From an uncultured delta proteobacterium (lineage in GTDB: Bacteria; Desulfobacterota; Desulfobacteria; Desulfobacterales; JAFDCJ01), in the NCBI GenBank assembly GCA_963766255.1, contig CAVXZZ010000037.1:16960-48959 (forward strand): DNA of 32,000 bases, read 5' to 3'. Shown in pieces: positions 1,125 through 25,388 of this stretch. A program made the position numbers and the translations under genes. The number at the start of each line of letters is the position of its first letter. Position 1 is the first letter of the stretch. The notes below the pieces were generated by a model. The model made no database searches. It had not been told where the DNA came from and worked only from the letters and a program-made list of their open reading frames with translations.

Positions 1125-1138
1125 AGGATGTCCGTTGT

Positions 1139-1567: not shown

Positions 1568-1627
1568 TCTGACTCGCTTCTAAACACAAAATACAAAAAA
1601 CTAAACACCTTGCAACACACTACTTCG

Positions 1628-6661: not shown

Positions 6662-6868
6662 AAATCATTAAAATCAGCTTCCAAACAAAAAAATTTCGAA
6701 AAAAAGCACATACGGGTCGATAGTAATAATGCTTATTAATATCAAATTCTAAAAAGATATTCTTATCTCCGAGCGCCATACTGTTGACCTTTTGCGCCAT
6801 TATCGATAGCTGTTTAACATACTGAAATAAATAAAAAGAAAGGCAAGTCTAAAAAGGAAAATCAGCAT

Positions 6869-7906
6869 ATGGCTGTAACGCATCCTTTATCTCCAGCAGA
6901 TATTCTATGGAATATATTAGAAGACTATGGCCATGACGCCGAATCTATATTTCTTGAGGAGGGCATCGATCGTGAAATGATTTTAAAACCGGGGGCGCGT
7001 ATTACCCACGCGAGGGTTGACAGCCTTTGGTCTAAAGTAAACGAACTGATAGACGATCCATGTTACGGGGTGCGGGGCGTAAAATTTTGGCACCCTTCCC
7101 ACTTTAATGCCTTAGGTTATGCCTGGCTTGCAAGCGGTACTTTGCGCGAAGCTCTTAGCCGTGCTGCCCGCTATGCTCACGTTATCGGGGAAGATAGGGA
7201 ACATCGGCTGGAGGATACGGCTGAAGGACTGACCGCTACGTTGTCCCATTCTCTGAAGCTGCCCGCCTTCATGGATTTGTCAATGGCAATTTTGATGTCT
7301 ATGTGTCGGCTTAATTACGGAGCGGAGTTAAACCCGGTGAATGTCAATTTTATCCACGCCAAGCCTGCCTGTGCCAGCGAGCACGATTCCTATTTCAATG
7401 CTCCGGTTAAGTTCAACGCTGATACCGACTGCCTTGCCTTACCGGCAGATGCTGTTGATAAACGCCTGCCGATTGGCAACCCACAGCTTGCCAAAATTCA
7501 CGACCAATATATCATCCGTTATTTAGCAAGATTGGACAAAAATAGCATTGTCCAGCACGTTAAAGGCGTGATTATTGACATGCTGCCTTCGGGTGGGGTT
7601 TCCAATGAAAAGGTGGCAAAAAGATTGAACATGAGTAAGCGAAACCTGCAGCGCAAACTGCAACTCGATCATACTACTTTTCGAACACTGCTGGGCAAGG
7701 TACGCCAGGAGTTTGCAGAAAATTATGTACACGATTCAGCCGTCAGTCTGATGGAGGTGGCATTTATTTTAGGATATTCGGATTACAGTTCTTTTTCGAG
7801 AGCTTATAAGCGTTGGACGGGGGTGTCGCCTGGTGAGGGAAGGCATGAGGCGTTGAATTCAAATCACAATCCACATACAGATATCATCGATCAGTACCGA
7901 GATTAG
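6869..7906 (+). CDS. AraC-family transcriptional regulator with N-terminal AraC-type ligand-binding domain
   Basis: 345-aa ORF with a C-terminal double HTH (VAKRLNMSKRNLQRKLQ...TFRTLLGKVRQEFA...VAFILGYSDYSSFSRAYKRWTGVSP). Confidence 0.8.
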   Translation: MAVTHPLSPADILWNILEDYGHDAESIFLEEGIDREMILKPGARITHARVDSLWSKVNELIDDPCYGVRGVKFWHPSHFNALGYAWLASGTLREALSRAARYAHVIGEDREHRLEDTAEGLTATLSHSLKLPAFMDLSMAILMSMCRLNYGAELNPVNVNFIHAKPACASEHDSYFNAPVKFNADTDCLALPADAVDKRLPIGNPQLAKIHDQYIIRYLARLDKNSIVQHVKGVIIDMLPSGGVSNEKVAKRLNMSKRNLQRKLQLDHTTFRTLLGKVRQEFAENYVHDSAVSLMEVAFILGYSDYSSFSRAYKRWTGVSPGEGRHEALNSNHNPHTDIIDQYRD

Positions 7907-8474
7907 CCGTTTTTTCGCCTTCACGCTTACCCAGTTTTTCTGAAGCCACCTTCCTGGCAGTCACCGTAAAAAACCATCCGGATAGGTTGGATCGCAGCCT
8001 ATCTAACCCTTCCCCATGTGATTCACCGAATCTGTCGATGTCGGTATAAAAACCGGATTTAGTGTAACGCCAGAGTTTATCAGCGTCTTTAACGATCATG
8101 TCATTTAGCGAACGCGGCTTTTGGCGGGAATCATGACCGTCGATGATCTCCAGAATCTTTTCCGTTTTAGAAGAATCATATTTTACTTGCTGCAGTATTT
8201 CCTGGGCGATTTTTACCCCTTCCACTTCATGGAGCCGATTTAACTCGGGTCTGCTTGTGTTGGGACCGAATGCCTTGAGATGCATATCGGCCGGCACGCC
8301 TTTCCAGCCGGTATCGTGCAGGATAATGGCCGGAATCACAATATCTTCTTCACCGCCTTCCCGTTCCAATAGCTCAAAAGCCAGCAGAGTCGATATTTCG
8401 GTATGAACATCATTGTGACGGGTGTTCAGAAAAGGCCTGGCAAGTTGCCGGATTTTTTCGAAAACAGATTTCAT
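7884..8474 (-). CDS. HD-domain metal-dependent phosphohydrolase
   Basis: 196-aa ORF with H...HD signature residues (VHTEIS..., AIILHDTGW, IDGHDS, KDADKL). It overlaps the lysR-type gene by 4 nt (ATGA), which suggests one operon. Confidence 0.7.
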   Translation of the reverse strand: MKSVFEKIRQLARPFLNTRHNDVHTEISTLLAFELLEREGGEEDIVIPAIILHDTGWKGVPADMHLKAFGPNTSRPELNRLHEVEGVKIAQEILQQVKYDSSKTEKILEIIDGHDSRQKPRSLNDMIVKDADKLWRYTKSGFYTDIDRFGESHGEGLDRLRSNLSGWFFTVTARKVASEKLGKREGEKTANLGTDR

Positions 8475-9430
8475 TTGGCAGCTGTTCTTCGTTGGGCAAG
8501 TATTTTAGTCATCATCGCGCCTATACCCATGGGATCGATATCTGATGCCCTCAATTTTATCAAGGTATCCACAAAGGCCTTAGCGGGCGGCGAAAGGGGT
8601 TGATTTTTTAAATACGCAATGCTGACATCCAAATATATTTGCGGATTTTTTAATGGCACAGAAGCCAGTTTTTTTTCCCTCAACTCTAATGCGACGGCCT
8701 CTTTTACCACCATCGAGATACCGTCACTGCGCTGAACCAGCTGTTTGATAAATTCGGTATTACTGGTCTCCATTAAAATATCGGGCTCACAGTTCGCATT
8801 CGCAAATGACTGCTCTACCAGTTTCCGCGTTCCCGATCCTTTTTCTTTCATAATAAATGGCTCTTTCGCCAGATCTTCGAAAGACACAGCCTTTTTGCGC
8901 CTAAAAGGATGTTCGGGCGCTACGATGAGCGCCATTTCCTCTTTACTGAAGGGATGGAAATTAACTTCGGGCACGTCCTCTGCTTTGGCAATCACGGCTA
9001 CTTCATTTTTAAATTCAAGAAGGCTGTAGGTCATGTCCAGGGAACTGCCTTCATTTAACTGGATTTTGATGTCGGGGTGGCTTTCGTGAAAGCTAGTCAG
9101 CATCAGCGGCATGAAATAGCGGGCGTAGGCTTTAGTGGTTCCCAGGCTGAGGACTCCCCGCTTGAGTTCGTGCATGTCTTCAATGGCATTTTCGATTTCT
9201 TTTTCATGTTTAAAAATTTTTTCCGCATACCCATAAAGTGTCCGCCCCTCGTCGGTCAGGAACAAATTGCGTCCTTTTTTCCTGAACAGCTTTAAATTGC
9301 AGACCTCCTCAAAAGCCTTCATCTGGGCGGTCACGGCCGGCTGGGTGATAAAAAGCTCACCGGCCGCAACCGTATAATTCAAATTTTTGGCCGCGTGGTA
9401 AAAGACGCGCAATTGGTTGAGGTTTAGCAT
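8471..9430 (-). CDS. LysR-type transcriptional regulator (LTTR)
   Basis: 319-aa ORF with the N-terminal wHTH LNQLRVFYHAAKNLNYTVAAGELFITQPAVTAQMKAFE and a C-terminal LysR substrate-binding fold. It is divergent from the pps-like cluster. Confidence 0.85.
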   Translation of the reverse strand: MLNLNQLRVFYHAAKNLNYTVAAGELFITQPAVTAQMKAFEEVCNLKLFRKKGRNLFLTDEGRTLYGYAEKIFKHEKEIENAIEDMHELKRGVLSLGTTKAYARYFMPLMLTSFHESHPDIKIQLNEGSSLDMTYSLLEFKNEVAVIAKAEDVPEVNFHPFSKEEMALIVAPEHPFRRKKAVSFEDLAKEPFIMKEKGSGTRKLVEQSFANANCEPDILMETSNTEFIKQLVQRSDGISMVVKEAVALELREKKLASVPLKNPQIYLDVSIAYLKNQPLSPPAKAFVDTLIKLRASDIDPMGIGAMMTKILAQRRTAAK

Positions 9431-9444
9431 GTTTCTCCAGAGAT

Positions 9445-9478
9445 CAGATGGCAGAAGACAGAAAACAGATGGCAGATG
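9445..9478. repeat. cagatg/gcagaa low-complexity repeat immediately upstream of the lysR start
   Basis: The sequence is cagatggcagaagacagaaaacagatggcagatg. The reverse complement of 9455-9478 matches 13237-13260 at 23 of 24 positions. Confidence 0.6.
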
Positions 9479-9613
9479 CCATTGAATTCAGAAGGGTCTG
9501 GCTTTCACCGCGTAACCCGCAACGCGCAACCCGTAACAGAATCCAGTGGCCAGCAGCCACTGACAAGTGACGAAAAATTTTGCCTAAAAATTATTTATAT
9601 ATCCAATTGATAG

Positions 9614-9628
9614 ATAAGCTGAGCTTAT
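9614..9628. promoter_or_regulatory. LTTR-type binding box (ATA-N9-TAT / T-N11-A palindrome)
   Basis: ataagc-tga-gcttat is a perfect 6-bp inverted repeat. Its centre lies about 65 nt upstream of the start site predicted from the promoter at 9651-9679, the classical LTTR recognition-site position. Confidence 0.45.
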
Positions 9629-9650
9629 GGGTAACATAAATTTAATTGGT

Positions 9651-9679
9651 TTGACAGTTTTATTTTAATTGTTCATAAA
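9651..9679 (+). promoter_or_regulatory. Candidate sigma70 promoter for the pps-like cluster
   Basis: TTGACA (9651-9656), a 17-nt spacer, then CATAAA (9674-9679). This would give a leader of about 180 nt before the ATG at 9869. Confidence 0.35.
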
Positions 9680-9714
9680 AAACTGAACGTTATTTAACAA
9701 TCCATGGATTTCAA

Positions 9715-9730
9715 AAAAGTGCGCACTTTT
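9715..9730. promoter_or_regulatory. Perfect 16-nt palindrome in the leader of the ppsA-like gene
   Basis: The palindrome aaaagtgcgcactttt is followed by gttttg. The 10-mer aaagtgcgca recurs in reverse complement at 11905-11914, upstream of the ppsB-like gene. Confidence 0.35.
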
Positions 9731-9868
9731 GTTTTGTGGTTCTGACCGGTGTCTTGTTCTCTGTCACTATCTCTTCCTGGTTTGATGGGCGCAATCAAAC
9801 ATCTCTATTCAAGCCGCTTGAGGCTTTTTCAAATATGAATCAATCTCACAACGCAAAGGAGGACGACA

Positions 9869-11725
9869 ATGGCAGATGACAAAGGCAGATTTCCGGATCC
9901 TCACGAGTTTAAAGTCCCCCCGGAGCTTGAAGGCTGGGAGGAAATGTATCCAACCCATCACCTGTTTTCGGAAGATCGGGCTGATTGGGAAAAAGCCCAA
10001 TTCTGGTATGCAGACAAAATCCACGCACCCGAACCTTTGCCTCCTCTGGACCTGATCTTTCAGGAAGCATGGCAGATCTCCCTGTCCCAGTATACGACCC
10101 GCGTATTTTGCATCCCCCCTGCCCAGGGAATTGCCCAGCGACTGGTGGGCTGTTATCTGTACATCTGCGCCATTGCCCCACCGCCCGATGAAATTATCGG
10201 TGAAAAAGCCGCACATTTTGAAAAACGGGTATTTTATGTCTTTGAACACTACGATGAATTGTGGGACAAATGGCTGACCAAATTTAAGGCCCTGGGGGAG
10301 GAAATGCGGGCGGTTAACGTGCCCTCGGAATTGCCTAAATATGTTGCCGATGACAAGGTTTTTCCAGCCCCCACGGGTTACTATGAAAGTTACGACCTGA
10401 TCGAGTCTTTCGACAAACTGGTCAACCAGATGTTCAAAGGCTGGCAGTATCATTTTGAAATGCTCAACTTGACCTACCTGGCCTATCTGATGTTTGCCGA
10501 TGTGTCCCGCAAGCTTTTCCCCGGAATCAGCGAAAGCGCCATCGGAAAGATGGTCGCCGGCGCCTATGTCTCCATGTTTCGACCGGAGGAGGAACTTTGC
10601 AGACTTTCCCGGCTGGCGGTGTCGTCTGATGGTGTCGGTGCTATTCTTGGCAGCGAAAAATCCGCCGCCGATAAGATTGCCGAGCTTCAACAATCAGAAG
10701 CCGGCAAGAACTGGCTGGCCGAATATGATAAATCAAGTGATCCCTGGTTTTATGTATCCAACGGCAGCGGCTGGTATCACCATGAGGGCAGCTGGCTGAC
10801 TGATCCTGACATTCCCTACAGTTATATCAAAGGCTACGTTCAAAGGCTGGAAAAAGGTGAGACCATTGAGCGCTCCCTGGATGAGATCGAGAAGGAACGC
10901 GATGAAATTGTCGCCGAGTACACCAAAATGATACAAACCGACGACGACCGCAAAGCCTTTGACGATGCCTACAACACCATTCGAACCATCTACCGCTACG
11001 CCGAGGATCATCTTTTCTGGGTGGAACATTGGTTTCACACCATCTGGTATAAAAAAATCAGAGAAATTGGATCCGTCCTGGTAGCCAGCGGAATGCTTAA
11101 TGATGTGGACGATATATTTATGTTCAACCGCTACGAAATTCCGCAGCTTCTGACGGAAGTGGCAACCGCCTGGGCCCTGGGTGTGGATATACCGACCCGG
11201 GGGGATCAGTATAAGGCCAAGGCCGCCAAACGCCGCAAAATCCTCGCGGCTGCCGCCGAATGGAACCCGACACCGGCGTTGGGCGTACCACCCGAAGAAG
11301 TGGCCGAGCCCTTCACCATCATGCTCTGGGGTATTACCACCGACAAGGTAAAAGAATGGCTCAAAGGTGTCGATGCAACCAGTGGCGCGGATGTCTCTGA
11401 AATCAAGGGGTTTGCCTCTTCGGCCGGCGTGGTTGAAGGTCCGGCCCGGGTCCTCAAGAGGCTCAAGGACATCACCAAGCTGCAACCGGGTGAAGTTCTG
11501 GTGTGTCCGTCAACCAATCCATCCTGGGCACCGGTTTTCACCAATATCAAGGCCGCGGTAACCGACATCGGTGGATTGACCAGCCATGCAGCAATTGTCT
11601 GCCGTGAATACGGCGTCCCGTCGGTAACCGGCTGCGGTTACGCTACAGCGGCTATCAAAACTGGAGATATTGTTAAAGTCGATGGTGATACCGGTGTTGT
11701 CACGATTGTCAAAAGAGCGGGTTAG
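9869..11725 (+). CDS. ppsA: Phenylphosphate synthase alpha-subunit-like protein (PEP-utilising enzyme with C-terminal mobile phosphohistidine domain)
   Basis: 618-aa ORF with an aggagg SD 7 nt upstream. The C-terminal GGLTSHAAIVCREYGVPSV is the PEP-utilizer phosphohistidine motif. The N-terminal EGWEEMYPTHHLF...FWYADKIHAPEPLPPLD resembles what I recall of Thauera PpsA. The size matches the 70-kDa subunit. Confidence 0.7.
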   Translation: MADDKGRFPDPHEFKVPPELEGWEEMYPTHHLFSEDRADWEKAQFWYADKIHAPEPLPPLDLIFQEAWQISLSQYTTRVFCIPPAQGIAQRLVGCYLYICAIAPPPDEIIGEKAAHFEKRVFYVFEHYDELWDKWLTKFKALGEEMRAVNVPSELPKYVADDKVFPAPTGYYESYDLIESFDKLVNQMFKGWQYHFEMLNLTYLAYLMFADVSRKLFPGISESAIGKMVAGAYVSMFRPEEELCRLSRLAVSSDGVGAILGSEKSAADKIAELQQSEAGKNWLAEYDKSSDPWFYVSNGSGWYHHEGSWLTDPDIPYSYIKGYVQRLEKGETIERSLDEIEKERDEIVAEYTKMIQTDDDRKAFDDAYNTIRTIYRYAEDHLFWVEHWFHTIWYKKIREIGSVLVASGMLNDVDDIFMFNRYEIPQLLTEVATAWALGVDIPTRGDQYKAKAAKRRKILAAAAEWNPTPALGVPPEEVAEPFTIMLWGITTDKVKEWLKGVDATSGADVSEIKGFASSAGVVEGPARVLKRLKDITKLQPGEVLVCPSTNPSWAPVFTNIKAAVTDIGGLTSHAAIVCREYGVPSVTGCGYATAAIKTGDIVKVDGDTGVVTIVKRAG

Positions 11726-11851
11726 TATTTAGTTGAAGTGTTGATTGGTTGATTAGTTGTGGCCGTAGCTGAAATTCAGCTGAATCATACCGATTCGATT
11801 TCAACCAATTAGAAAATGCGCAAAACCTTCTAATCCAAAACGATAGTTCTC

Positions 11852-11889
11852 TCCCGGTTCCCGCCCCCTGATGGGGCTGGGAACCGGGA
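11852..11889 (+). repeat. Extended GC-rich hairpin with CUGAU loop
   Basis: The structure is tcccggttcc-c-gcccc-ctgat-ggggc-tg-ggaaccggga. It has a 10-bp outer and a 5-bp inner stem. It is related to the cccggtttc-ctgaa-gaaaccggg hairpin at 16698-16724. Confidence 0.55.
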
Positions 11890-11947
11890 AGAAGGTGATT
11901 AACTTGCGCACTTTCAAAGATCCCCTATAATTTGCGGGAGAACGCTA

Positions 11948-13018
11948 ATGGACTTAATCCTGGATTTTAAAAAGCTCAATAAAAGTTCCCTGCCATTGGT
12001 CGGTGGTAAAAATGCCAGCCTGGGAGAAATGATCAATGCCGACATCCGGGTGCCTCCGGGCTTTGCCGTCACCACCGACAGCTATGCGGTGTTTATGGAA
12101 AAAGCCGGCATTAATGATACGATATTTAGTCTGCTGGCGGACCTGGATCCGGATAATATCGATGCACTCAACCAGGCCGCCGAAAAAGTCCAGGAAATGA
12201 TCAGAACTGCGGTCATCCCCGATGATGTCCAAAAAGGCATCAGCGACGGGTATTCTCTGCTGTGCGAACAATGCAAAGTTGATGCCCTTCCGGTGGCTGT
12301 AAGATCCAGCGCAACCGCCGAAGATCTGCCCACGGCCAGTTTCGCCGGGCAGCAGGACACGTATCTCTGGATAATGGGCGCTGACCGGGTTATTGAAAGC
12401 GTCCGCAAATGCTGGGCCAGCCTGTATACGCCGCGGGCCATCAGCTACCGGGTCAAAAATGACTTCCCCCATGAAAAGGTTCTGATCAGCGTCGGTGTTC
12501 AGAAAATGGTGAACTCAAGGGCAGCCGGCGTGATGTTCACCCTGAATCCCACCGACGGTGATATTTCCAAAGTTGTGCTTGAAGGCAGCTGGGGACTGGG
12601 AGAAACAGTCGTATCCGGTTCGGTCAACCCGGACAAATTCGTCGTCGACAAGGTCATGGGGGAGATCAATGACCGAACCATCTCTACCAAACACATCGAG
12701 TGTGTCTTTGACGTTGAAAAAGGAGAAACCATCGACGCCGATGTGGACGAAGACATGCAGTGCACCTGCTGTCTCGAGGACGAGGAAATAAAAGAACTGG
12801 TCAAAATAGCCAAAACAATAGAGGCCCACTACGGCCGCGCCATGGATATCGAGTGGGCCATCGACAAGGATTTTTCGTTCCCGGAAAGTATTTTCATTGT
12901 CCAGGCACGCCCGGAAACGGTCTGGAGCCAGCGCAAGGTAGAATCCAAGCTCGGCAAAAAAACCGGATATCAATTGTTGATGGATCAGGCCATGAAACGG
13001 ATTAAACTGCCGGGATAA
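11948..13018 (+). CDS. ppsB: Phenylphosphate synthase beta-subunit-like protein (PPDK_N ATP-grasp, PEP/pyruvate-binding domain)
   Basis: 356-aa ORF with the N-terminal LVGGKNASLGEM and the signatures RSSATAEDLPTASFAGQQDTYL and MDIEWA, which mark the nucleotide-binding domain of PEP synthase/PPDK. The size matches the 40-kDa PpsB. Confidence 0.7.
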   Translation: MDLILDFKKLNKSSLPLVGGKNASLGEMINADIRVPPGFAVTTDSYAVFMEKAGINDTIFSLLADLDPDNIDALNQAAEKVQEMIRTAVIPDDVQKGISDGYSLLCEQCKVDALPVAVRSSATAEDLPTASFAGQQDTYLWIMGADRVIESVRKCWASLYTPRAISYRVKNDFPHEKVLISVGVQKMVNSRAAGVMFTLNPTDGDISKVVLEGSWGLGETVVSGSVNPDKFVVDKVMGEINDRTISTKHIECVFDVEKGETIDADVDEDMQCTCCLEDEEIKELVKIAKTIEAHYGRAMDIEWAIDKDFSFPESIFIVQARPETVWSQRKVESKLGKKTGYQLLMDQAMKRIKLPG

Positions 13019-13027
13019 CGAAACAAA

Positions 13028-13231
13028 GAATTCGGAAGTAGGAATGCGGAATGTGGAAATCAAGGGAGGGTAAAGGGAGAAGGGCTTAGAATGCAAAATG
13101 GTAAAGGCCGCCAGCTAACGTCACGTTAAAGCCTGAGTATGTCACAGCAGGCAAGTGTTAAAACCCAGAAGTAAAAAACCAGATACGTGGCCTTTTGTAA
13201 TTCCACATTCCATATTTCAACTTGCGAATTC
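13028..13231. repeat. About 204-bp palindromic intergenic element
   Basis: The arm gaattcggaagtaggaatgcggaatgtggaaat (13028-13060) pairs with the reverse complement of 13199-13231 (gaattcgcaagttgaaatatggaatgtggaatt) at about 27 of 33 positions. Inner pairing involves aaaggcc (13103-13109) and ggcctttt (13190-13197). Confidence 0.6.
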
Positions 13232-13236
13232 AAATA

Positions 13237-13260
13237 CATCTGACATCTGTTTTCTGTCTT
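13237..13260. repeat. 24-nt motif shared with the lysR leader
   Basis: catctgacatctgttttctgtctt matches the reverse complement of 9455-9478 (catctgccatctgttttctgtctt) at 23 of 24 positions. Confidence 0.6.
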
Positions 13261-13360
13261 TGCTTGAGAGATACTTATGCATCTCCGAAGTAAGACCCAC
13301 TTAGGATAGAAATAAATATAATTCGTTAACTAAAAAATAAGAGAGGAGAACTGTATCAAA

Positions 13361-14794
13361 ATGAAAGACATGAGAGATTTTGTAGCAAAGGGCGAAGAAG
13401 TTGGTTTGTGCCAAAGGATCACCGCCGAAGTCGACTGGAACCTGGAACTGTCGCATATTGCCAAGCTCAATGAAGAGGCCGGCGGCCCGGCGCTTCTTTT
13501 TGAAAACGTGAAAGATTATGATACGCCGGTTATTACCAGTGTATGCACCACAACTAACAGGCTGGCTTTGATAATGGGCCAGCCCCTTGGATCCTCTCTG
13601 ACCGAGCTTTACGAAGAATGGGCCCGGCTCGGTGAAAACCTGGTTAAACCCAAAATGGTGGAATCCTCAGCCGCCCCCTGTAAGGAAAATATCCTGACGG
13701 GTGATGACATCGATCTTGCAAAGTTTCCGGTGCCGCACTGGTATCCCCGGGACGGCGGACGCTATATGGGCACCGCCCATTTCATCATCAGCAAAGACCC
13801 CGAAACCGGCTGGGTTAACCTGGGAACCTACCGCGGCCAGATGCTTGGCAAAGATAAGATGGGCACTTTGTTTATCAAGGGCAAACATGCCGACATCATG
13901 CTGAAAAAATACCAGGCCATGGGCAAGCCCATGCCGGTAGCTTCGGTAATCGGCTGCGATCCCTTGCTGTTTATCCTGGGCGCGGCCCGGGTCTCGGCAT
14001 TTACATCGGAATATGACGTCGCTGGGGCATTGCGCGGTGAACCCGTGGAAGTCGTCAAGGGGGAAACCGTGGACCTTCCCATACCGGCCCACGCGGAGAT
14101 CGTCATCGAAGGCGAAGTGGATGCCGACAAATTTATGGAAGAAGGCCCCTTCGGCGAATACACCGGGTATTATTCCGGTGTCGGCACGAACCCGCGCAAT
14201 TTCATCGATGTCAAATGCATAACCCACAGAAACAACCCCATTTTTTGGGGAACCACCGTGGGCCGGGCCGTCACCGACACCCATATGACCATGGCGCTTT
14301 CATACGGCGCAACCCTGTGGCAGCAGCTGCTGGCTATGAAAATTCCCGGACTCAAAGCGGTGTACTGCCCGCCCGAAGGCTCCGGACGATTCCTGGCCAT
14401 CATCTCCATTAAGCAGATGTATCCCGGACACGCCGACCAGGTACTCACCGCCGCCATCTCAACCGAGATGGGTGCCTACGGGCTCAAAACCGTCATCGTG
14501 GTGGACGAAGATATCGACCCCTGGGATATTCCCCGGGTCATGTATGCACTAAGCTTCCGCTTCCAGCCCAACCGGTCCCAGGTTATCAAACGCGGCCGGT
14601 CAACACCCCTGGATCCCTCGCTGCCCATCAGCGCCAGAGACATCACCGGCAGGTTGCTGCTGGATGCCACCATACCTTACGACTGGAAAGAGAAACCAAT
14701 CCCCATCAAATTGGATCCGGAAATGGTTGAAAAGGTCAAAGGCCGATGGAAGGAACTGGGCTTGGATAAAATTTCTTCGGATAAATACTTATAG
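13361..14794 (+). CDS. ubiD: UbiD-family prFMN-dependent (de)carboxylase, phenylphosphate carboxylase alpha/beta-subunit-like
   Basis: 477-aa ORF with UbiD hallmarks: GPALLFENVKDY, EGPFGEYTGYY and an IEGE acidic patch. ITAEVDWNLELSHIAKL at the N-terminus and ATIPYDWKEKP at the C-terminus resemble what I recall of PpcA/PpcB. Confidence 0.8.
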   Translation: MKDMRDFVAKGEEVGLCQRITAEVDWNLELSHIAKLNEEAGGPALLFENVKDYDTPVITSVCTTTNRLALIMGQPLGSSLTELYEEWARLGENLVKPKMVESSAAPCKENILTGDDIDLAKFPVPHWYPRDGGRYMGTAHFIISKDPETGWVNLGTYRGQMLGKDKMGTLFIKGKHADIMLKKYQAMGKPMPVASVIGCDPLLFILGAARVSAFTSEYDVAGALRGEPVEVVKGETVDLPIPAHAEIVIEGEVDADKFMEEGPFGEYTGYYSGVGTNPRNFIDVKCITHRNNPIFWGTTVGRAVTDTHMTMALSYGATLWQQLLAMKIPGLKAVYCPPEGSGRFLAIISIKQMYPGHADQVLTAAISTEMGAYGLKTVIVVDEDIDPWDIPRVMYALSFRFQPNRSQVIKRGRSTPLDPSLPISARDITGRLLLDATIPYDWKEKPIPIKLDPEMVEKVKGRWKELGLDKISSDKYL

Positions 14795-14866
14795 CCGATA
14801 GCCCATAGCCCCGCCTTAGGCGGGGCTCATAGCAAAGGATTTCACTGCTATGGGCGTCAGCTATTG
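14794..14866. repeat. Inverted-repeat element with central GC hairpin just after the ubiD-like stop
   Basis: The arm gcccatagc (14801-14809) pairs with gctatgggc (14847-14855). The central hairpin is agccccgcc-tta-ggcggggct (14807-14827). No U-tract follows, so it is not a canonical terminator. Confidence 0.5.
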
Positions 14867-14972
14867 TTTAATAAATATCTTAGGCTATTTGCTTTCATTC
14901 AAAGTTAAAAGACCGCTGTTCTAACAATCAGATTACAGCTATGAACTATGGGCTTCTACTAGGAGGTATTAA

Positions 14973-16628
14973 GTGAAACCAATTCGCTATACACAGGAAA
15001 TGGTGGATGAATTTTTAAATGACGGATATTGGACCCAGGAGCTTTTTTATGATTTCTGGGAAAGAAACGCCCGCGAATTCGGCGACCAGGAAGCCCTGGT
15101 GGATTCAAAGTACCGCGTCACCTGGGCCGAGGCTAAAAAATTGGTGGATGCCATCGCCTACACCTGGGTACAGATGGGCATTCCCAAATCGTCCCGCATT
15201 ATTATTCAGTCGCCCAACAGTGTCTATGGATTCCTGGCACGCATCGCAGCTGAAAGGGCCGGTCTTATTTCTCTGACCGTCTACCCCTATTTGCGGGAAA
15301 GAGAATTGACCTACATGGTGGAGAGAACCGAGGCATCCGCCGTTGTTATTTTGAATGAATACCGCAATTTCAATTATCTTGAAATGTACCGCGATCTTCA
15401 GAAGAAATTCCCCCATCTGGAAAAGATTTTTCTCTTCGACGATGAAGTTCCGGCCGGAGCACCGGAAGGAACCTATTCGCTAACCCAACTGGCCCAGGCG
15501 GCGGCTGAAAAGCCCATCGACGAAGAGGCCCTTAAAGCACGCCGATTGGACCCAATTTGGGATATCGCCCTGCTGACAACGACATCGGGAACCACCGGCA
15601 TACCCAAACTGGTGGAATGGCCCACCGCCCCCCGGGTATGCACCTCGAAAGGCCGGGTGGATATCTGGGGCCTTACCAACAAAGATACCACCATGGCGAT
15701 TGCACCCCACGCCGGTGGTGCCGCCGGCACCCTCACCTATTTTGCCGCTCCCATAGCCGGTGCCAAGACGGTCATGCTGGAGGAATTCAATCCGGAAGCC
15801 GCTTTAGCCCTGATTGAAAAAGAGAAAGCCACCGCCATCGGGGTGGTGCCGACCCATCTGGTGCGAATGCTCGAAGTAGATGCCTCCAAGTACGACTTGA
15901 GCTCCCTGCGCTTTATCCGTTCCGCCGGTGGCTATCTCTCTCCCCAGATTGCTGAAGAAGCCGAAACCGCCTTTGGTGCCAACATTACCAGTGACCTGGG
16001 CACCCAGGACATGGGATCGGTTTCGGGTTGCCGGGTGGAGGATTCCAAAGACCTTCGCCGCCGAACCGTCGGGCGCATGCTACCGGGCAACAAGGTGAGA
16101 CTGCTCGACAAGGACACCAACGAGCCGGTGGCCGATGGCGAACCCGGGGTGTTGTATTTCAGAGGCCCCCATGCACCGGCCGGCTATTATCGCGACGAAG
16201 AATTGACGTCCACGGTTTTCGATCCCAAGGGCTGGACCACTACCGGTGATATTGTGAAATTTGACCAGGAATGCCTGTGGATCCTGGGCCGGGCCAAGGA
16301 CATGATTATTCGCGGCGGTCAGAATATTTATCCCGCGGAAATCGAAGGCCTGCTCAATGATCATCCCAAGGTCGCCTCGGTGGCCGTTGTGGGATATCCG
16401 GACCGGGAAATGGGGGAACGGACCTGCGCTTATGTCATCGCCAAAGGCGGCCAGGATTTCAGTTTTGAAGAAATGGTTGAATTTCTCAAGGGCAAAAAAC
16501 TGGCCATGTACAAACTGCCCGAACGCCTCGAAGTCGTTTCCGAATTCCCGGCCGTAGGTGATTCCGGGAAAGTAAATAAAGAAACGCTCAAAAAGGAAAT
16601 TGCAGAAAAAGTAGCCAAGGGCGAATAA
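14973..16628 (+). CDS. AMP-forming acyl/aryl-CoA ligase (ANL superfamily, aryl-acid DhbE/EntE-like N-terminus)
   Basis: 551-aa ORF with a GTG start and an aggagg SD. The AMP-binding motif is TTTSGTTGIPK. The N-terminal GYWTQELFYDFWERNAREFGDQEALVD resembles aryl-acid adenylating enzymes. The C-terminal A10 lysine context is GDSGKVNK. Confidence 0.8.
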   Translation: MKPIRYTQEMVDEFLNDGYWTQELFYDFWERNAREFGDQEALVDSKYRVTWAEAKKLVDAIAYTWVQMGIPKSSRIIIQSPNSVYGFLARIAAERAGLISLTVYPYLRERELTYMVERTEASAVVILNEYRNFNYLEMYRDLQKKFPHLEKIFLFDDEVPAGAPEGTYSLTQLAQAAAEKPIDEEALKARRLDPIWDIALLTTTSGTTGIPKLVEWPTAPRVCTSKGRVDIWGLTNKDTTMAIAPHAGGAAGTLTYFAAPIAGAKTVMLEEFNPEAALALIEKEKATAIGVVPTHLVRMLEVDASKYDLSSLRFIRSAGGYLSPQIAEEAETAFGANITSDLGTQDMGSVSGCRVEDSKDLRRRTVGRMLPGNKVRLLDKDTNEPVADGEPGVLYFRGPHAPAGYYRDEELTSTVFDPKGWTTTGDIVKFDQECLWILGRAKDMIIRGGQNIYPAEIEGLLNDHPKVASVAVVGYPDREMGERTCAYVIAKGGQDFSFEEMVEFLKGKKLAMYKLPERLEVVSEFPAVGDSGKVNKETLKKEIAEKVAKGE

Positions 16629-16634
16629 ATTGAG

Positions 16635-16911
16635 GAATGGATTCTGTTTAAATTTAAAAAAGTAGACAGGATTTACAGGATTATTAGGATTATTTTATTC
16701 CCGGTTTCCTGAAGAAACCGGGAATAGCCTATCCGCTTCGCGGAAGGAGTATCTTGTCACTACCAAACCTTCTAAACTAATATAGGATGTGGTCTTAACT
16801 CTTTTCCGCCGGCAGGCGGATGATACTTTCACGGTTTCTTCTGGAAACCGTGAAAATCTTGTAGATCCTGTTAATCCTGTCAAAATGTTTTTTAAAAATA
16901 GAATCCATTCA
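16635..16911. repeat. About 277-bp MITE-like element with roughly 55-bp imperfect terminal inverted repeats
   Basis: The left arm is gaatggattctgtttaaatttaaaaaagtagacaggatttacaggattattaggatt (16635-16690). The reverse complement of 16853-16911 is gaatggattctatttttaaaaaacattttgacaggattaacaggatctacaagatt. Internal hairpins lie at 16698-16724 (loop ctgaa), 16806-16819 and 16829-16851. No ORF is present. Confidence 0.65.
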
Positions 16912-16995
16912 TTTTTCTATCTCAGATATGCTGGACCGCTTCTCATTACCTTGTGGCATCCAATAAATTCTTAACCGCGTATAGCAGGAAAATTT

Positions 16996-18207
16996 ATGCC
17001 AAAACCAGTTCTAGTTATTTCTACTCTGGATACCAAGGGGCAGGAGACCCTGTATCTCAAAGACAAATTAAGCGCCATCGGATTATCGCCCGTTGTAATG
17101 GACATCTCCGGGCGCGGCAGTGATATTGCCGGAATCGATGTTCCTGCGGCCCGTGTCGCGGAAGCGGGCGGCGGCGACTTTGAAGAAATGAAAAATTCCC
17201 GCGATCGAACCCGCATCACCAACATCATGATGGCAGGCGGTGCCCAGATTGCAGCTGATTTGCTGGCCGGGGGAAAGCTCGCCGGGGTTATTGCCCTGGG
17301 GGGATCAACGGGTTCTTTGATGGGCTCCGAGATAATGAGGTCACTGCCCTTCGGGATTCCCAAAGTGATGATTTCATCGACAGCTGCCCTGCCCGGTCTA
17401 TCCACCCGCTACATCGGGACCGGGGATATCGCCCTCTTCCATTCGGTGGTCGAAATATCCGGCGTTTCCAATCTGCTTAAAAATGTCATGGACCGCGCAG
17501 CCCACGCTTTAGCGGGAATGGTTGCCGATGATATCTCCTCACCCAAGGCTGAAAAGGGCAAAGCCATTGCCCTGACCATGCTGGGACCCTGTGAAAAATG
17601 CGCCAGTGCGGTGCGAATGGCATTGGAGCAGCACGGTTATCAGGTCATCGGATTTTCAGCCGCCGGCATAGGCGACCGCGCCATGGAAGACATGATCGCA
17701 GCAGGTTTTTTCCAGGGTGTCATCGATCTGGCACCGGGTGGTGTCGGCGAACATCACTTCGGTTTTATGCGGGATGCCGGCCCCCATCGTCTGGAAACCG
17801 CCGGGAAATCAGGCATCCCCCAGATTATTTCCACCTGCAGCGTAAACCACATGACCCCGGCCCGGTCCAAGTATAAATCGGAATACCACGAACGGCGCAA
17901 GTTCGATCTGGACAAATTGCGCACCTGGATCCGGCTGTCCCCTGATGAGTTAAAAGAGGTTGCCGGCATTTTTGCCGAAAAACTGAACCAGGCCAAAGGG
18001 CCGGTAACCGTCATAATCCCGACGGATGGATGGTCGGCAGCGGATTTACCCGGCAACGACACCCATGACCCGGCCGAAGACCGACTTTTTATTGAAGTGT
18101 TGCGGGAAAAACTCAAACCCGATGTTCAAATACTGGAAGTTGATGCCAACATGGAAGATCCCGAGTTTGCCAAAGCAGTGGTTGAAAACGCGTTAAAAAT
18201 ATTTTAA
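16996..18207 (+). CDS. UPF0261 family protein (Tm-1 N-terminal-like), intact copy 2, embedded in the UbiD/UbiX cluster
   Basis: 403-aa ORF that is collinear with 5435-6661 (ISTLDTKGQE, ALGGSTGS, GIPKVMISS, VIIPTDGWSAADLPGNDTHDPAED). It ends 35 nt before ubiX. Confidence 0.75.
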   Translation: MPKPVLVISTLDTKGQETLYLKDKLSAIGLSPVVMDISGRGSDIAGIDVPAARVAEAGGGDFEEMKNSRDRTRITNIMMAGGAQIAADLLAGGKLAGVIALGGSTGSLMGSEIMRSLPFGIPKVMISSTAALPGLSTRYIGTGDIALFHSVVEISGVSNLLKNVMDRAAHALAGMVADDISSPKAEKGKAIALTMLGPCEKCASAVRMALEQHGYQVIGFSAAGIGDRAMEDMIAAGFFQGVIDLAPGGVGEHHFGFMRDAGPHRLETAGKSGIPQIISTCSVNHMTPARSKYKSEYHERRKFDLDKLRTWIRLSPDELKEVAGIFAEKLNQAKGPVTVIIPTDGWSAADLPGNDTHDPAEDRLFIEVLREKLKPDVQILEVDANMEDPEFAKAVVENALKIF

Positions 18208-18242
18208 TATGGGACACAGATAAATAACGACAAGAGGTTGTC

Positions 18243-18848
18243 ATGAACAAACGATTAGTTGTTGGAATATCAGGTGCCAGCGGGGTGACCTATGGCGTCA
18301 GGTTACTGCAGGTGCTTCAAGATACGGATTATGAAACCCATTTGATCATTTCAAAATCCGGTGAGTTAAATATCCAAATTGAAACGGATTATGATCCGGC
18401 TGATGTTAAAGCCATGGCCGATTATGTCTACGATCACAAAAACATCGCGGCATCCCTGGCCAGCGGATCCTTTTTGACCGCCGGCATGGTGGTGGTGCCG
18501 TGCACCATCAAGACCCTGTCGGGAATTGCCAACTCCTACAACGAAAACCTGCTGGTAAGAGCGGCCGACGTGACCTTGAAGGAAAAACGTAAATTAGCGC
18601 TGGTAGTCAGGGAAACCCCGCTGCACAAAGGGCATCTGCGATTATTGACCATGGCCGCCGACATGGGCGCCCATATCCTGCCCCCGGTGCCCTCCTTTTA
18701 CCACATGCCCAAGACCATCGAAGATATAATCGATCAAACCATCGGCAAAATTTTCGACTTCATGGGCATCGAGCACAATCTTTTCAACCGCTGGGGGGAA
18801 GAATCGAAAAATGCCGGGAAAAACGGCTCGCCGTTGAAGGCGGTTTAG
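18243..18848 (+). CDS. ubiX: Flavin prenyltransferase UbiX (prFMN synthase)
   Basis: 201-aa ORF containing RLVVGISGASGVTYGVRLLQ, VVVPCTIKTLSGIA and RAADVTLKEKRKLALVVRETPL. This is the classical UbiX/Pad1 pattern. Confidence 0.9.
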   Translation: MNKRLVVGISGASGVTYGVRLLQVLQDTDYETHLIISKSGELNIQIETDYDPADVKAMADYVYDHKNIAASLASGSFLTAGMVVVPCTIKTLSGIANSYNENLLVRAADVTLKEKRKLALVVRETPLHKGHLRLLTMAADMGAHILPPVPSFYHMPKTIEDIIDQTIGKIFDFMGIEHNLFNRWGEESKNAGKNGSPLKAV

Positions 18849-18893: not shown

Positions 18894-19319
18894 TTATTTC
18901 CGATCTTCTACTTTGATCTCCATCGCGATGTGTCCCCAGCCCCCGCATTGGATACCCACGTCGAAACAGCCGACCCGGTTCAGTCTCATATCGTTGGGGT
19001 CTATCCCCGCATAAAACAGCTCATTAACAACAACCATGGGGCCGGAAAGGACACTCAGCGCGTGAACACATATACGCTTGGGATTCAATTTGGTTATCAG
19101 GTTTCCGGCGCCGTCAAAATAGAATTTATCACCGACATGATGTTGACTGGCGCATCCATGTGATGCGACGACTTCAGCAACAATGGTTTTATTCATTAAG
19201 TCGGGCGCTTTTGACATGATTTCTACGTTCTTGGGATTACTGCGAAATTTTTCCAGTTCCTCATCGGTATATCCAAGATGCTGCTGCATGAATTTCCAGG
19301 TCTCTTCATTAACTTCCAT
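18894..19319 (-). CDS. Small Cys/His-containing conserved protein, possibly TIGR04076-like
   Basis: 141-aa ORF. The C-terminal 95 aa (HGCASQHHVGDKFYFD...RICVHAL...VGCFDVGIQCGGWGHIAMEIKV) resemble the TIGR04076 pattern as I recall it. It starts 3 nt after the HD gene ends. Confidence 0.4.
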   Translation of the reverse strand: MEVNEETWKFMQQHLGYTDEELEKFRSNPKNVEIMSKAPDLMNKTIVAEVVASHGCASQHHVGDKFYFDGAGNLITKLNPKRICVHALSVLSGPMVVVNELFYAGIDPNDMRLNRVGCFDVGIQCGGWGHIAMEIKVEDRK

Positions 19320-19322
19320 TTA

Positions 19323-19961
19323 TCATCTCCTTTTTTGAATATCCTCCAATTTTTCTAAGAGCCTCTCGATATTTTTCTGCTTCTCTTTATCTCTCATTTT
19401 TTTCTGGGACTCGGTATAATATTGATGGTTGGTTATAACTGCCAGTGTACCCTGGTACCATTTTTCATCATCACTGACATCGATCCCCCTTATCCGCCGC
19501 CCTTCCCTTAACTTTCCATCCAATTCGAAAAAATCCTCCCGGCCGAAGTGGTCGAGATCGGCATCACAAAGAATCTTCTCCACATGGGTCTGCGGTTTTA
19601 CCGCAAGATCGGTTGCCAGTATCATTTTCTGGATCTTTTCGATTTCGTCCGGCTTGTAGCCGATCAATTTAAGAATTCTGCCTGCCATGCGAGCGGCTAT
19701 GGGCTCATTGGGTGCATATTCTCTTATATAACCCGAGTCATGAAAATAGGCTGCAGTTAGAAGCAATTCCCTATCATGATCTGAAATCTTCTCGGATAGG
19801 GCAATACGGTTCGCAGAAGCAACCACGCCCTTGGTGGGATGAAGGGTATGCTTGGCATCATGATATTTCAGTCCGCGGATCAACTCATCTTTGAATAAAT
19901 CCCGAATATACTCATCCACGACTTTCAGCCGGGGTGTGTGGGGCTTGTAATATGGATTCAT
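19323..19961 (-). CDS. HD-domain phosphohydrolase
   Basis: 212-aa ORF with KYHDAKHT, AAYFHDSGY and CDADLDHFG. Confidence 0.7.
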   Translation of the reverse strand: MNPYYKPHTPRLKVVDEYIRDLFKDELIRGLKYHDAKHTLHPTKGVVASANRIALSEKISDHDRELLLTAAYFHDSGYIREYAPNEPIAARMAGRILKLIGYKPDEIEKIQKMILATDLAVKPQTHVEKILCDADLDHFGREDFFELDGKLREGRRIRGIDVSDDEKWYQGTLAVITNHQYYTESQKKMRDKEKQKNIERLLEKLEDIQKRR

Positions 19962-20299: not shown

Positions 20300-20941
20300 C
20301 TATTTATTCTTACCGCCCTTGCCGCCTCCATTACCGCCGCCTTCGCCACCCCCATTGCCACCGCCGTGACCACCACCGCGATTGCTGCTTTTGTTTTTGC
20401 TATGTCCTAACGCAAGTCCTTTGCCTTGATTATTCTGGCGGCTGTCGGCATAGGCTATATCAGAATCTTTTTGCACCATTTTCGCTTTGGATTTCATACC
20501 TGAATGTTTTGAGTGATGAACGCTCTCTTCGAAAGATTTTGGAGAATGACCCAATCCCAGCACAGAAGGATGTAAGTCGTAATTATACTCTCTATTTATT
20601 TTATGTACGATATCCCCCCAACCCATGCCGGCGGCTCGCATACGTGTAATCTGCCGGGAAATCGTCTCCACTTGCTCACGATAAACCGCTCTGGCGGCTT
20701 TATAGCGCCCAAGCTCAATTAACTCAATAACTTTAGGGTCTTGCAACGCGGCCTGTCTGGCAACATTGTCTGCATGCTGAGCCTGGGCAGCGTTCTGAAA
20801 TGTCACTTCAGGTTCATCAGCCCTCAGGTCAGTTAACCCGAACCAAGCAACCATAGAAATACAGACGAAAAAGACTAGAAGCAAATATTTTGCGGAAATT
20901 TTCAATTTGTTTTTTTCTGCTGATAACAGCTCAATCATCAT
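20300..20941 (-). CDS. Exported protein of unknown function with His-rich middle and Gly-rich C-terminal tail
   Basis: 213-aa ORF with a strong SD (gagggaggaaaa). An N-terminal hydrophobic segment (YLLLVFFVCISMVAWFGL) could be a signal or anchor. The motifs GLGHSPK and GLALGHSKNK are repeated, and the tail is GGGHGGGNGGGEGGGNGGGKGGKNK. Confidence 0.6.
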   Translation of the reverse strand: MMIELLSAEKNKLKISAKYLLLVFFVCISMVAWFGLTDLRADEPEVTFQNAAQAQHADNVARQAALQDPKVIELIELGRYKAARAVYREQVETISRQITRMRAAGMGWGDIVHKINREYNYDLHPSVLGLGHSPKSFEESVHHSKHSGMKSKAKMVQKDSDIAYADSRQNNQGKGLALGHSKNKSSNRGGGHGGGNGGGEGGGNGGGKGGKNK

Positions 20942-25300: not shown

Positions 25301-25388
25301 GAATGGATTCGATTTTTATTAACAGCTTTTTGACAGGATTTACAGGATTTACAAGATTTTTTTCTTTTTCATTTCCCTGAAGGAAATG
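25301..25388. repeat. Half-copy (one arm plus hairpin) of the 16635-16911 element
   Basis: gaatggattcgatttttattaacagctttttgacaggatttacaggatttacaagatt (25301-25358) aligns with both arms of the 16.6-kb element. It is followed by the hairpin catttcc-ctgaa-ggaaatg (25370-25388), which has the same ctgaa loop. Confidence 0.6.

Follow-up and report, generated by a model that had tools for sequence, protein, structure and literature searches.

Gene organization of the operon

A 32,000-nucleotide stretch of DNA from an uncultured bacterium of the order Desulfobacterales (contig CAVXZZ010000037.1), referred to here as the window, carries six co-directional genes of a putative pathway for the anaerobic activation of phenol, together with a divergently transcribed gene for a LysR-type regulator. 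The whole 32-kb window was examined, and statements about gene content refer to these 32 kb. The regulator gene (8471–9430, minus strand) encodes HTH_1 and LysR_substrate domains and adjoins the gene for PpsA in about 60 related loci. The operon on the plus strand begins with a PpsA-like phospho-histidine subunit of an aryl dikinase (9869–11725, 618 amino acids; PF00391 and NF006153), which is followed by a PpsB-like ATP-binding subunit (11948–13018, 356 amino acids; PPDK_N) and by a PpcB-type UbiD protein, a carboxylase dependent on prenylated flavin mononucleotide (prFMN; 13361–14794, 477 amino acids; three UbiD domains, TIGR02724). The second half of the operon encodes an aryl-acid adenylating or coenzyme A (CoA) ligase that is DhbE-like overall (14973–16628, 551 amino acids; AMP-binding domains), a UPF0261 protein of the subtype designated c, which is an ATP-binding protein of the MarK/Tm-1 family with a remodelled pocket (16996–18207, 403 amino acids; PF06792 and PF23189), and UbiX, the flavin prenyltransferase that synthesizes prFMN (18243–18848, 201 amino acids; NF004685). 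A check of open reading frames (ORFs) placed the LysR gene and each of the six operon genes at exactly the coordinates given in a preliminary description of this DNA, and its assignments of PpsA/PpsB, UbiD, the DhbE-like ligase, UPF0261 and UbiX are borne out by domain and profile matches. The six-gene order is well beyond chance, and it recurs in dozens of independent genomes.

The PpsA-like protein matches the PEP-utilizers mobile domain (PF00391) with an E-value of 5e-25 and the profile NF006153 with a score of 854.5 bits. Its phospho-accepting histidine motif GGLTSHAAIV is intact, and the segment GGLTSHAAIVCREYG aligns with the same motif in PpsA of Azoarcus. Sequence identity amounts to 41% with Azoarcus PpsA, 40% with a CreH-like protein of Rhodococcus, 45% with a haloarchaeal homologue, and 39% with a homologue from Thermomicrobium. 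The PpsB-like protein, whose gene adjoins that of PpsA, contains the PPDK_N domain (PF01326, E-value 6e-122); its closest counterpart is Azoarcus PpsB with 54% identity.

By its sequence, the UbiD protein is of the PpcB type. It scores 504.8 bits against TIGR02724 (phenyl_P_beta), for which the cut-off is 468.95, and thus passes the NCBI equivalog model for PpcB; the 230 bits that it reaches on the α-subunit model TIGR02723 are below the cut-off of 564.6. Its identity to Azoarcus proteins is 49% for PpcB, 35% for PpcA, and 30% for the extra UbiD of the ORF7 type, and its motif EGPFGEYTGYY is intact. The assembly collection contains no record of the exact UbiD protein. In a neighbour-joining tree, a simple distance tree with few references, UbiD proteins of the window type group tightly together as the sister clade of classical PpcB, and PpcA branches more distantly. 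The UbiX protein exceeds the cut-offs of both NF004685 (260.8 bits versus 188) and TIGR00421 (241.9 bits versus 108.9) and is 53% identical to UbiX of Azoarcus.

Subunits absent from the window

The reference for absent genes was the classical phenol cluster, represented by proteins encoded on plasmid pAZKH of Azoarcus sp. KH32C, which were compared by tblastn with the whole 32 kb. The CBS-domain protein PpsC (γ subunit of the kinase) produced only noise, as did the phosphatase PpcD (δ subunit of the carboxylase), the small subunit PpcG (γ), and the NUDIX protein. Queries with PpcA and with the extra UbiD matched the one UbiD gene only; a second UbiD was not found in the 32 kb. The locus does not encode a four-subunit Ppc system: the α, γ, and δ subunits are locally absent within the window. 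The preliminary description had reported PpsC, PpcA, PpcD, and the small subunit as missing from the gaps between the genes, and the searches extend this result beyond the gaps to the complete window. Its statement that the gaps contain no ORF of at least 60 amino acids needs correction for the gap 16629–16995, where two mechanical ORFs of 61–62 amino acids with TTG/GTG start codons lie inside a nested inverted-repeat element. A second UbiD may be encoded elsewhere in the source genome, by analogy with Desulfatiglans anilini, since the α-like and δ-like subunits of that organism are encoded away from its cluster; the designation "single UbiD" may therefore hold for the locus only. In one related locus (L075), a further UbiD gene is positioned 12 kb upstream.

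Conservation in uncultured Desulfobacterota

A scan of one genome per species detected relatives of the PpsA-like protein in 269 Desulfobacterota genomes. The best 80 matches of the 269 are 77–95% identical to the PpsA-like protein and all come from uncultured Desulfobacterota; the hosts belong to Desulfobacterales and Desulfatiglandales and include an Olavius symbiont and Candidatus Desulfacyla. A separate homologue search returned hundreds of homologues of the PpsA-like protein at 80–93% identity. The order divergent LysR, PpsA, PpsB, UbiD, UPF0261, and UbiX, with or without the ligase between UbiD and UPF0261, recurs throughout the related loci. The six core proteins of the window are full-length and 86–96% identical to those of its closest relatives.

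Gene content was counted in the 32 loci with at least 5 kb of sequence downstream of UbiD. All 32 contain UPF0261, whereas UbiX is present in 28 and the 551-residue ligase in 27. Two small proteins are encoded in addition in many of the clusters. A stand-alone receiver-domain protein of about 175 residues, whose phospho-acceptor site (DD / D / T / K) is complete, is encoded between UbiD and the ligase in 22 of the 32 loci, and it could be a phosphate acceptor that replaces the missing PpcD phosphatase. An LpdD-type protein of about 130 residues (PF21758) is encoded between UPF0261 and UbiX in 15 of them; LpdD is a chaperone of reduced prFMN, prFMNH2 (PMC10865409). Examples of these small genes are located at 7732–8259 and 11236–11631 of locus L087 and at 14726–15241 of L002. 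The window and its closest relatives, L003–L008, contain neither the receiver-domain protein nor LpdD.

Two loci combine the PpsA family of the window with more classical genes. In L039 (2968–13955), the genes for a PpsA of the same family (79% identity) and a PpsB precede those for an Azoarcus-type ligase, an ORF7-type UbiD, UbiX, a classical PpcB that is 58% identical to that of Azoarcus, and a PpcD-like protein; the cluster has neither UPF0261 nor the 551-residue ligase. Locus L081 from Desulfatiglandales contains a second PpsAB pair (5512–8517, minus strand), with 57% and 37% identity to PpsA and PpsB of Azoarcus, beside a pair of the window type (10001–13040, plus strand).

The closest annotated PpsAB-like pair is found on haloarchaeal megaplasmids, as exemplified by a plasmid of Natribaculum luteum (L084, 8950–11979), with identities of 45% and 47%. 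The pair adjoins genes for a Rieske dioxygenase, an aldehyde dehydrogenase, a HAD phosphatase, and a metallophosphoesterase. The locus appears to encode an aerobic archaeal pathway in which phenol is phosphorylated.

Comparison with characterized clusters

The cluster itself is already known as a kind, the phenol cluster of strict anaerobes, in which a short gene list is normal. The phe cluster of D. anilini (H567DRAFT_02049–02059) is induced by phenol, and phenylphosphate synthase activity has been measured in extracts of the organism (PMC6114531). The consecutive locus tags 02059–02056 of this cluster encode ppcβ (468 amino acids), a "DHB-AMP ligase" (2,3-dihydroxybenzoate-AMP ligase; 552 amino acids), a UPF0261 protein (403 amino acids), and UbiX (PMC6114531; PMC7500099). 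The window shares with it ppsα of about 70 kDa, ppsβ of about 40 kDa, a single ppcβ, the ligase, UPF0261, and UbiX, and both the order of the genes and the sizes of the proteins match. As in the window, ppsγ, ppcα, ppcδ, and ppcγ are not part of the cluster. Genes similar to ppsγ, ppcα, and ppcδ are located elsewhere in the D. anilini genome, and the γ subunit of the carboxylase is absent (PMC6114531); the distant ppcα-like gene is induced on phenol. The distance to the enzymes of denitrifiers is also similar: ppsα and ppsβ of D. anilini are 42% and 38% identical to those of Thauera aromatica and ppcβ 49% (PMC6114531), and the corresponding values for the window, relative to Azoarcus, are 41% for PpsA and 49% for PpcB. 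By contrast, the phe cluster contains the phenylacetate-CoA-ligase-like gene 02049 and subunits of 4-hydroxybenzoyl-CoA reductase, neither of which is present in the window; the window, in turn, has a divergent LysR gene as well as two additional upstream paralogues of UPF0261. The homologues retrieved with a UPF0261 protein from Desulfatiglandales as the query did not include D. anilini. Geobacter metallireducens has only the genes ppsA-ppsB-ppcB and was reported to have ppcβ as its only ppc homologue (PMC1924859; PMC6114531).

The preliminary description had regarded the missing subunits as the mark of an unusual or re-targeted cluster. This view does not hold, because the same subunits are missing from the clusters of G. 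metallireducens and D. anilini. The term "stripped-down" remains appropriate only in relation to the usual layout of the window's own family, from which the receiver-domain protein and LpdD are missing, and not in relation to the known clusters of strict anaerobes. Among the features by which an ordinary phenol cluster might be recognized, the description had also named a UbiD that groups within PpcB and a UPF0261 gene that is not co-expressed with the other genes. The UbiD passes the PpcB cut-off and is sister to classical PpcB; UPF0261, however, is expressed together with the other genes of the cluster in D. anilini.

The denitrifier cluster of the T. aromatica type, as found on pAZKH of Azoarcus sp. 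KH32C, shares with the window PpsA (41%), PpsB (54%), PpcB (49%), UbiX (53%), and a nearby DUF120 homologue. It differs in the presence of PpsC with its CBS domain, PpcD, PpcA, PpcG, a second UbiD-like protein, a NUDIX protein, and a 432-residue ligase, in its sigma-54 regulator in place of LysR, and in the lack of UPF0261 and of a DhbE-like ligase. The ani cluster for aniline degradation in D. anilini resembles the window in that it encodes a dikinase of two parts, a single UbiD, a ligase of about 550 residues, and a UPF0261 protein whose gene adjoins that of the ligase. However, its genes are in another order, namely pasβ (03868), UPF0261 (03869, 411 amino acids), acyl-CoA synthetase (03870, 549 amino acids), pasα, and ppcβ (PMC7500099), and UbiX is missing. 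Furthermore, Pasα is only about 27% identical to Ppsα of D. anilini and 28% to PpsA of T. aromatica, compared with the 41% between PpsA of the window and that of Azoarcus. The CreHI and HpeHI systems of Actinobacteria also have a two-subunit kinase of the PpsAB type (40% and 47% identity) and an HD phosphohydrolase in the cluster (PMC9618137); they differ in belonging to aerobic pathways that employ a P450 or a biotin carboxylase and contain no UbiD or UbiX.

CoA ligase

Overall, the ligase most resembles DHB-AMP and salicylate-AMP ligases, and its closest solved structures are the DHB-AMP ligases 6E8O and 1MD9. However, its score of 261.7 bits on TIGR02275, the model of (2,3-dihydroxybenzoyl)adenylate synthase, is far below the cut-off of 723.55, and alignment to 1MD9 shows that the pocket H234-N235-Y236...S240 of DhbE is not kept and is replaced by AGGA-AGT. 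With the DhbE motif absent, the pocket does not point to ortho-hydroxybenzoates, and the hint of a hydroxylated or aminated benzoate product that the preliminary description had drawn from the DhbE/EntE-like N-terminus is not sustained. The identity of the ligase to the T. aromatica ORF14 or Azoarcus type is 24%. The corresponding ligase of D. anilini (02058) is phenol-induced, and the authors stated its function as unknown (PMC6114531); its abundance rises from approximately 7e8 on other substrates to 1.26e10 on phenol (PMC7500099 supplement).

UPF0261 proteins

The first catalytic function of a UPF0261 protein was reported in 2025 for MarK (Saro_1862, PDB 9MPY), which phosphorylates phenolic hydroxyls with the conversion of ATP to ADP and favours para-acyl phenols (PMC12624787). 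The ATP site of MarK includes D14, T15, and K16, and its pocket is formed by G195, T196, H219, F283, I285, H304, and H348. His219, His304, and His348 hold the phenol substrate and its ketone, and G195, H219, and H304 are more than 90% conserved among MarK homologues (PMC12624787). MarK is part of the aerobic catabolism of acetovanillone, where it acts jointly with a biotin carboxylase (PMC12624787), and this sets it apart from the window proteins of the same two-domain family.

The c-type UPF0261 protein of the operon matches 9MPY over its full length (residues 4–399) with an E-value of 5.5e-52, and this match settles its fold. A second family member, designated b-type, is encoded upstream of the operon (5435–6661, plus strand) and is 40% identical to MarK. 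The D-T-K motif of the ATP site is kept in both. By contrast, their pockets differ. The residues of the c-type protein are G-P-S-H-T-L-A in place of G-T-H-F-I-H-H in MarK, a change of six of the seven positions, and those equivalent to G195, H219, and H304 are G, S, and L. The b-type pocket, G-T-H-F-V-H-F, retains five of the seven MarK residues and differs only by I285V and H348F; G, H, and H are found at the three highly conserved positions. The b-type gene upstream of the operon is conserved in about ten related loci. Its MarK-like phenol pocket makes the b-type protein a likely true phenol kinase and a better candidate for this activity than the copy inside the cluster.

A third paralogue, the a-type (3405–4629, plus strand), is split by a frameshift into two ORFs. 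In tblastn comparisons with the intact orthologues of L003 and L004, the frame switches at residues 256–260, near positions 4170–4185. Upstream of it, an apparently decayed flavin-reductase-like gene of the HpaC/PhdC class (PF01613; 2741–3215, plus strand) is recognizable from tblastn matches in three frames; the class includes the prFMN maturase PhdC (PMC13040415). In related loci, the a-type gene repeatedly adjoins a flavin reductase gene of this class. The broken state of both genes could reflect real decay or indel errors in the assembly.

Among the related loci, 28 of 29 c-type copies are positioned directly after the 551-residue ligase. Where this ligase is absent, other UPF0261 subtypes occupy the position between the receiver-domain protein or UbiD and LpdD or UbiX, and in L050 and L069 the UPF0261 gene overlaps the gene of a 443-residue Azoarcus-type ligase by 4 nucleotides. 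The subtypes are not separated by NCBIfam models, and a search of plasmids with the c-type protein returned nothing above 37% identity.

The UPF0261 protein of the phe cluster (02057) had proteome areas of 0 on 4-aminobenzoate, 5.0e7 on aniline, 5.3e7 on benzoate, and 2.5e9 on phenol, and that of the ani cluster (03869) was detected on 4-aminobenzoate and aniline only (PMC7500099 supplementary Table_1.XLSX). The D. anilini papers leave the UPF0261 proteins undiscussed and draw them as uncharacterized genes (PMC6114531; PMC7500099), and phenylphosphate is unmentioned in the MarK paper (PMC12624787). The full-text literature that was searched contained no link between UPF0261 and the anaerobic carboxylation of phenol or aniline.

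Regulatory region and intergenic repeats

The spacer between the LysR and PpsA genes was aligned for 37 loci. It contains a LysR box at 9614–9628, recognized by reading of the sequence and by conservation, with the dyad ATAAG-N5-CTTAT of the T-N11-A type, of which the core CATAA-N7-TTAT is at least 80% conserved. The likely operon promoter (9651–9679, plus strand) is formed by the −35 element TTGACA (9651–9656) and the −10 element CATAAA (9674–9679), separated by a 17-nucleotide spacer; TTGACAG and CATAA are at least 80% conserved at fixed spacing among the 37 loci. These elements are conserved although the flanking proteins are merely 60–85% identical. A leader of about 190 nucleotides separates the promoter from the ATG of PpsA. 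The divergent gene of the LysR-type regulator and the T-N11-A dyad upstream of the promoter are the features of a LysR-type catabolic operon. Scans for consensus promoters and terminators performed no better than on shuffled sequence, and the promoter was identified from conservation. An Rfam search of the whole window produced two sub-threshold chance matches, and none in the operon leader or in the gaps.

The possibility that small genes are hidden in the large gaps of the operon was rejected, as the gaps are occupied by dispersed inverted repeats. Segment 9455–9494 is paired with 13221–13260, 13028–13058 with 13201–13231, and 16665–16699 with 25332–25366. The gap between the ligase and UPF0261 is filled by a nested element (16635–16910) of four inverted-repeat pairs, one arm of which recurs in another spacer at 25315–25366. 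Because of the inverted-repeat elements, the gaps of the operon measure 178–367 nucleotides, compared with 0–150 nucleotides in the compact cluster L087 of Desulfatiglandaceae.

Neighbouring genes

HD-domain phosphohydrolases are encoded on both flanks of the operon. The gene adjoining LysR (7884–8474, minus strand; PF01966) encodes a protein 31% identical to the HD protein of a cre-type cluster for p-cresol phosphorylation in Rhodococcus; members of its family adjoin LysR or are located inside the cluster in ten loci, including the window. A second HD-domain gene is positioned on the other flank (19323–19961, minus strand). The flanking HD proteins may be phosphohydrolases of aryl phosphates or of dimethylallyl diphosphate. 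In L047, L057, L063, and L066, a related HD gene lies between UPF0261 and UbiX.

Near the start of the window (423–2215, minus strand), genes for a HAD hydrolase, a homologue of DUF120 or CTP-dependent riboflavin kinase (1139–1567, minus strand; PF01982), and a UbiE-like methyltransferase form an arrangement that is kept in L001, L003, and L005. The DUF120 protein is 32% identical to the one encoded after UbiX in the phenol cluster of Azoarcus, and this similarity suggests a shared role in flavin cofactor supply.

An iron–sulfur subunit (25569–26066, minus strand) and an aldehyde:ferredoxin oxidoreductase (26277–28217, minus strand) are encoded downstream; the closest structures are 1AOR, 9MQX, and 8C0Z from Aromatoleum. 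In about ten of the related loci, among them L004, L016, L059, L063, and L087, an aldehyde:ferredoxin oxidoreductase gene lies no more than 10 kb from the cluster. The identification of this tungsten enzyme as the benzoyl-CoA reductase BamB was rejected: 1AOR and 9MQX are closest, and BamB ranks eighth with a partial match. Three ORFs on the minus strand have no Pfam match (23854–25284, 476 amino acids; 20300–20941, 213 amino acids; 18894–19319, 141 amino acids), the last of which is shared with L006 only.

Predicted function of the operon

The favoured interpretation, to which we assign a probability of about 0.6, is that the locus is a LysR-activated operon of the strict-anaerobe type whose products activate phenol, or a very closely related phenolic compound, without oxygen, and that UPF0261 is a ligase-partnered protein of a kinase family. 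The substrate is probably phenol; we infer it, like all catalytic steps in this organism and the part played by UPF0261, from sequence and from analogy to the studied systems. LysR would activate the operon. PpsB would bind ATP and pass a phosphoryl group via the histidine of PpsA to the phenolic oxygen, with the conversion of ATP to AMP and phosphate. The PpcB-type UbiD, equipped with prFMN made by UbiX, would add CO2 para to the oxygen and form 4-hydroxybenzoate, and the DhbE-like ligase would make the CoA thioester, pulling the unfavourable carboxylation forward. UPF0261 would work with the ligase, and we tentatively propose that it transfers a phosphoryl group to or from the para substituent of the aromatic acid or its CoA ester, either for the removal or recovery of phosphate after carboxylation or for activation of the substituent before its later reductive removal. 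Two facts favour this role, the strict association of UPF0261 with the ligase and the preference of MarK for para-acyl phenols.

Several observations weigh against this interpretation. The assignment to the phe type is drawn by comparison of annotation, gene order, and protein sizes, and not from alignment. Sequence alone leaves the substrate of the kinase unfixed, because the PpsA-like protein is about equidistant (39–45%) from its four homologues, which include those of phenol, alkylphenol, and haloarchaeal systems. Neither a 4-hydroxybenzoyl-CoA reductase gene nor a gene of the benzoyl-CoA pathway is present in the window. The c-type UPF0261 protein lacks His219, His304, and His348 of MarK. 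Pasαβ and two UbiD proteins, encoded in two clusters, sufficed for the aniline steps in vitro without UPF0261 (PMC7500099), and UPF0261 is thus not strictly required for the aniline steps of D. anilini. L039, which speaks for the interpretation in that a classical PpcB and a PpcD-like gene accompany the same PpsA family where UPF0261 is absent, is a single case on a contig that ends soon after the cluster. The two PpsAB types of L081 may serve different substrates, with the window type acting on a different phenolic.

In an alternative that we consider rather unlikely, the same chemistry is applied to another phenolic or anilinic substrate, such as hydroquinone, converted to gentisate, catechol, converted to protocatechuate, a cresol, or aniline. 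Desulfobacterales are reported to carboxylate hydroquinone and catechol, and we know of no genes that have been assigned to these reactions. The equidistance of PpsA from phenol-, alkylphenol-, and other-type dikinases leaves room for such a substrate, as do the more classical PpsAB pair that accompanies the window type in L081, the ligase that is not of the T. aromatica ORF14 or Azoarcus type, and the sorting of PpsAB-type kinases into substrate-specific clades (PMC9618137). However, the UbiD passes the equivalog cut-off of PpcB, the ortho-hydroxy pocket motif of DhbE is absent from the ligase, and the 41% identity of PpsA to that of Azoarcus agrees with the value for Ppsα of D. anilini, unlike the 27–28% of Pasα. 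Moreover, the only studied cluster with the same gene order is induced by phenol (PMC6114531).

The alternatives for the in-cluster UPF0261 differ in the step that it would serve. Its involvement in the supply or maturation of prFMN, by provision of dimethylallyl phosphate for UbiX or by oxygen-free loading or maturation of the cofactor, is unlikely. To our knowledge, prFMN maturation in strict anaerobes is unsettled; published maturation assays use oxygen or ferricyanide as the oxidant (PMC13040415). UPF0261 directly precedes LpdD and/or UbiX in most related clusters, and in L087 its stop codon coincides with the start of LpdD. The small, hydrophobic c-type pocket without phenol-binding histidines, the repeated association of the a-type with a flavin reductase of the HpaC/PhdC class (PMC13040415), and the cofactor-supply genes (DUF120, NUDIX) at the equivalent position of the Azoarcus cluster agree with such a role. 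However, the strict pairing of UPF0261 is with the ligase, the sole known activity of the family is on phenols (PMC12624787), and the ani cluster has UPF0261 between pasβ and the ligase with neither UbiX nor LpdD nearby, UbiX being undetected in aniline-grown cells (PMC7500099). It is quite unlikely that UPF0261 replaces PpcD and PpcG in handling phosphate for the single-UbiD carboxylase, in which case it would bind phenylphosphate, transfer the phosphoryl group to ADP or water, hand phenolate to UbiD, and save one ATP equivalent. UPF0261 is present in 32 of 32 clusters without PpcD and PpcG and absent from L039, which has PpcD; this is the one informative counter-example. It is phenol-induced in D. 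anilini (PMC7500099), and since MarK produces ADP, the reverse reaction would yield ATP (PMC12624787). Xie and Müller concluded from the lack of the γ subunit that the carboxylase works by a different mechanism, and they described the energy cost as unexplained (PMC6114531). On the other hand, the phenol-contact histidines are lost in the c-type, the receiver-domain protein with its complete phospho-aspartate site could equally accept the phosphate in many clusters, and phenylphosphoamidate was carboxylated in vitro without UPF0261 (PMC7500099). It is very improbable that decay or an assembly error underlies the short gene list and that no working system exists in this genome: two upstream accessory genes, the a-type UPF0261 and the flavin-reductase-like gene, are broken and the operon gaps are swollen by repeats, but the six core genes are full-length, retain their motifs and their 86–96% identity to the closest relatives, and L003–L008 share the same short layout.

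Implications for anaerobic phenol degradation

The "short" cluster is very common among sediment Desulfobacterota, in which it forms a tightly conserved unit. Phenylphosphate carboxylation without the γ and δ subunits and the cost of up to four ATP equivalents were both raised as unexplained by the authors who studied D. anilini (PMC6114531). Every cluster of this kind that was examined contains UPF0261, which is induced together with the cluster in the one organism studied, and the activity of MarK, by which UPF0261 proteins can act as ATP-dependent phenol kinases, makes it a testable candidate. The gathering of several prFMN helper genes in the cluster bears on the maturation of this cofactor without oxygen. 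A tentative and somewhat unlikely extension is that the ligase-coupled UPF0261 represents a novel type of aryl phosphotransferase and supplies what is missing from the carboxylation of phenol and aniline in strict anaerobes. If it took over the phosphate handling of the δ and γ subunits, possibly with transfer of the phosphoryl group to ADP, this would explain how low-energy sulfate reducers can afford the pathway. If it phosphorylated the para-hydroxyl or para-amino group of the aroyl-CoA, the reductive removal of that group would become easier. In either case, there would be a second, widespread class of phenylphosphate carboxylase systems, defined by UPF0261 as a subunit.

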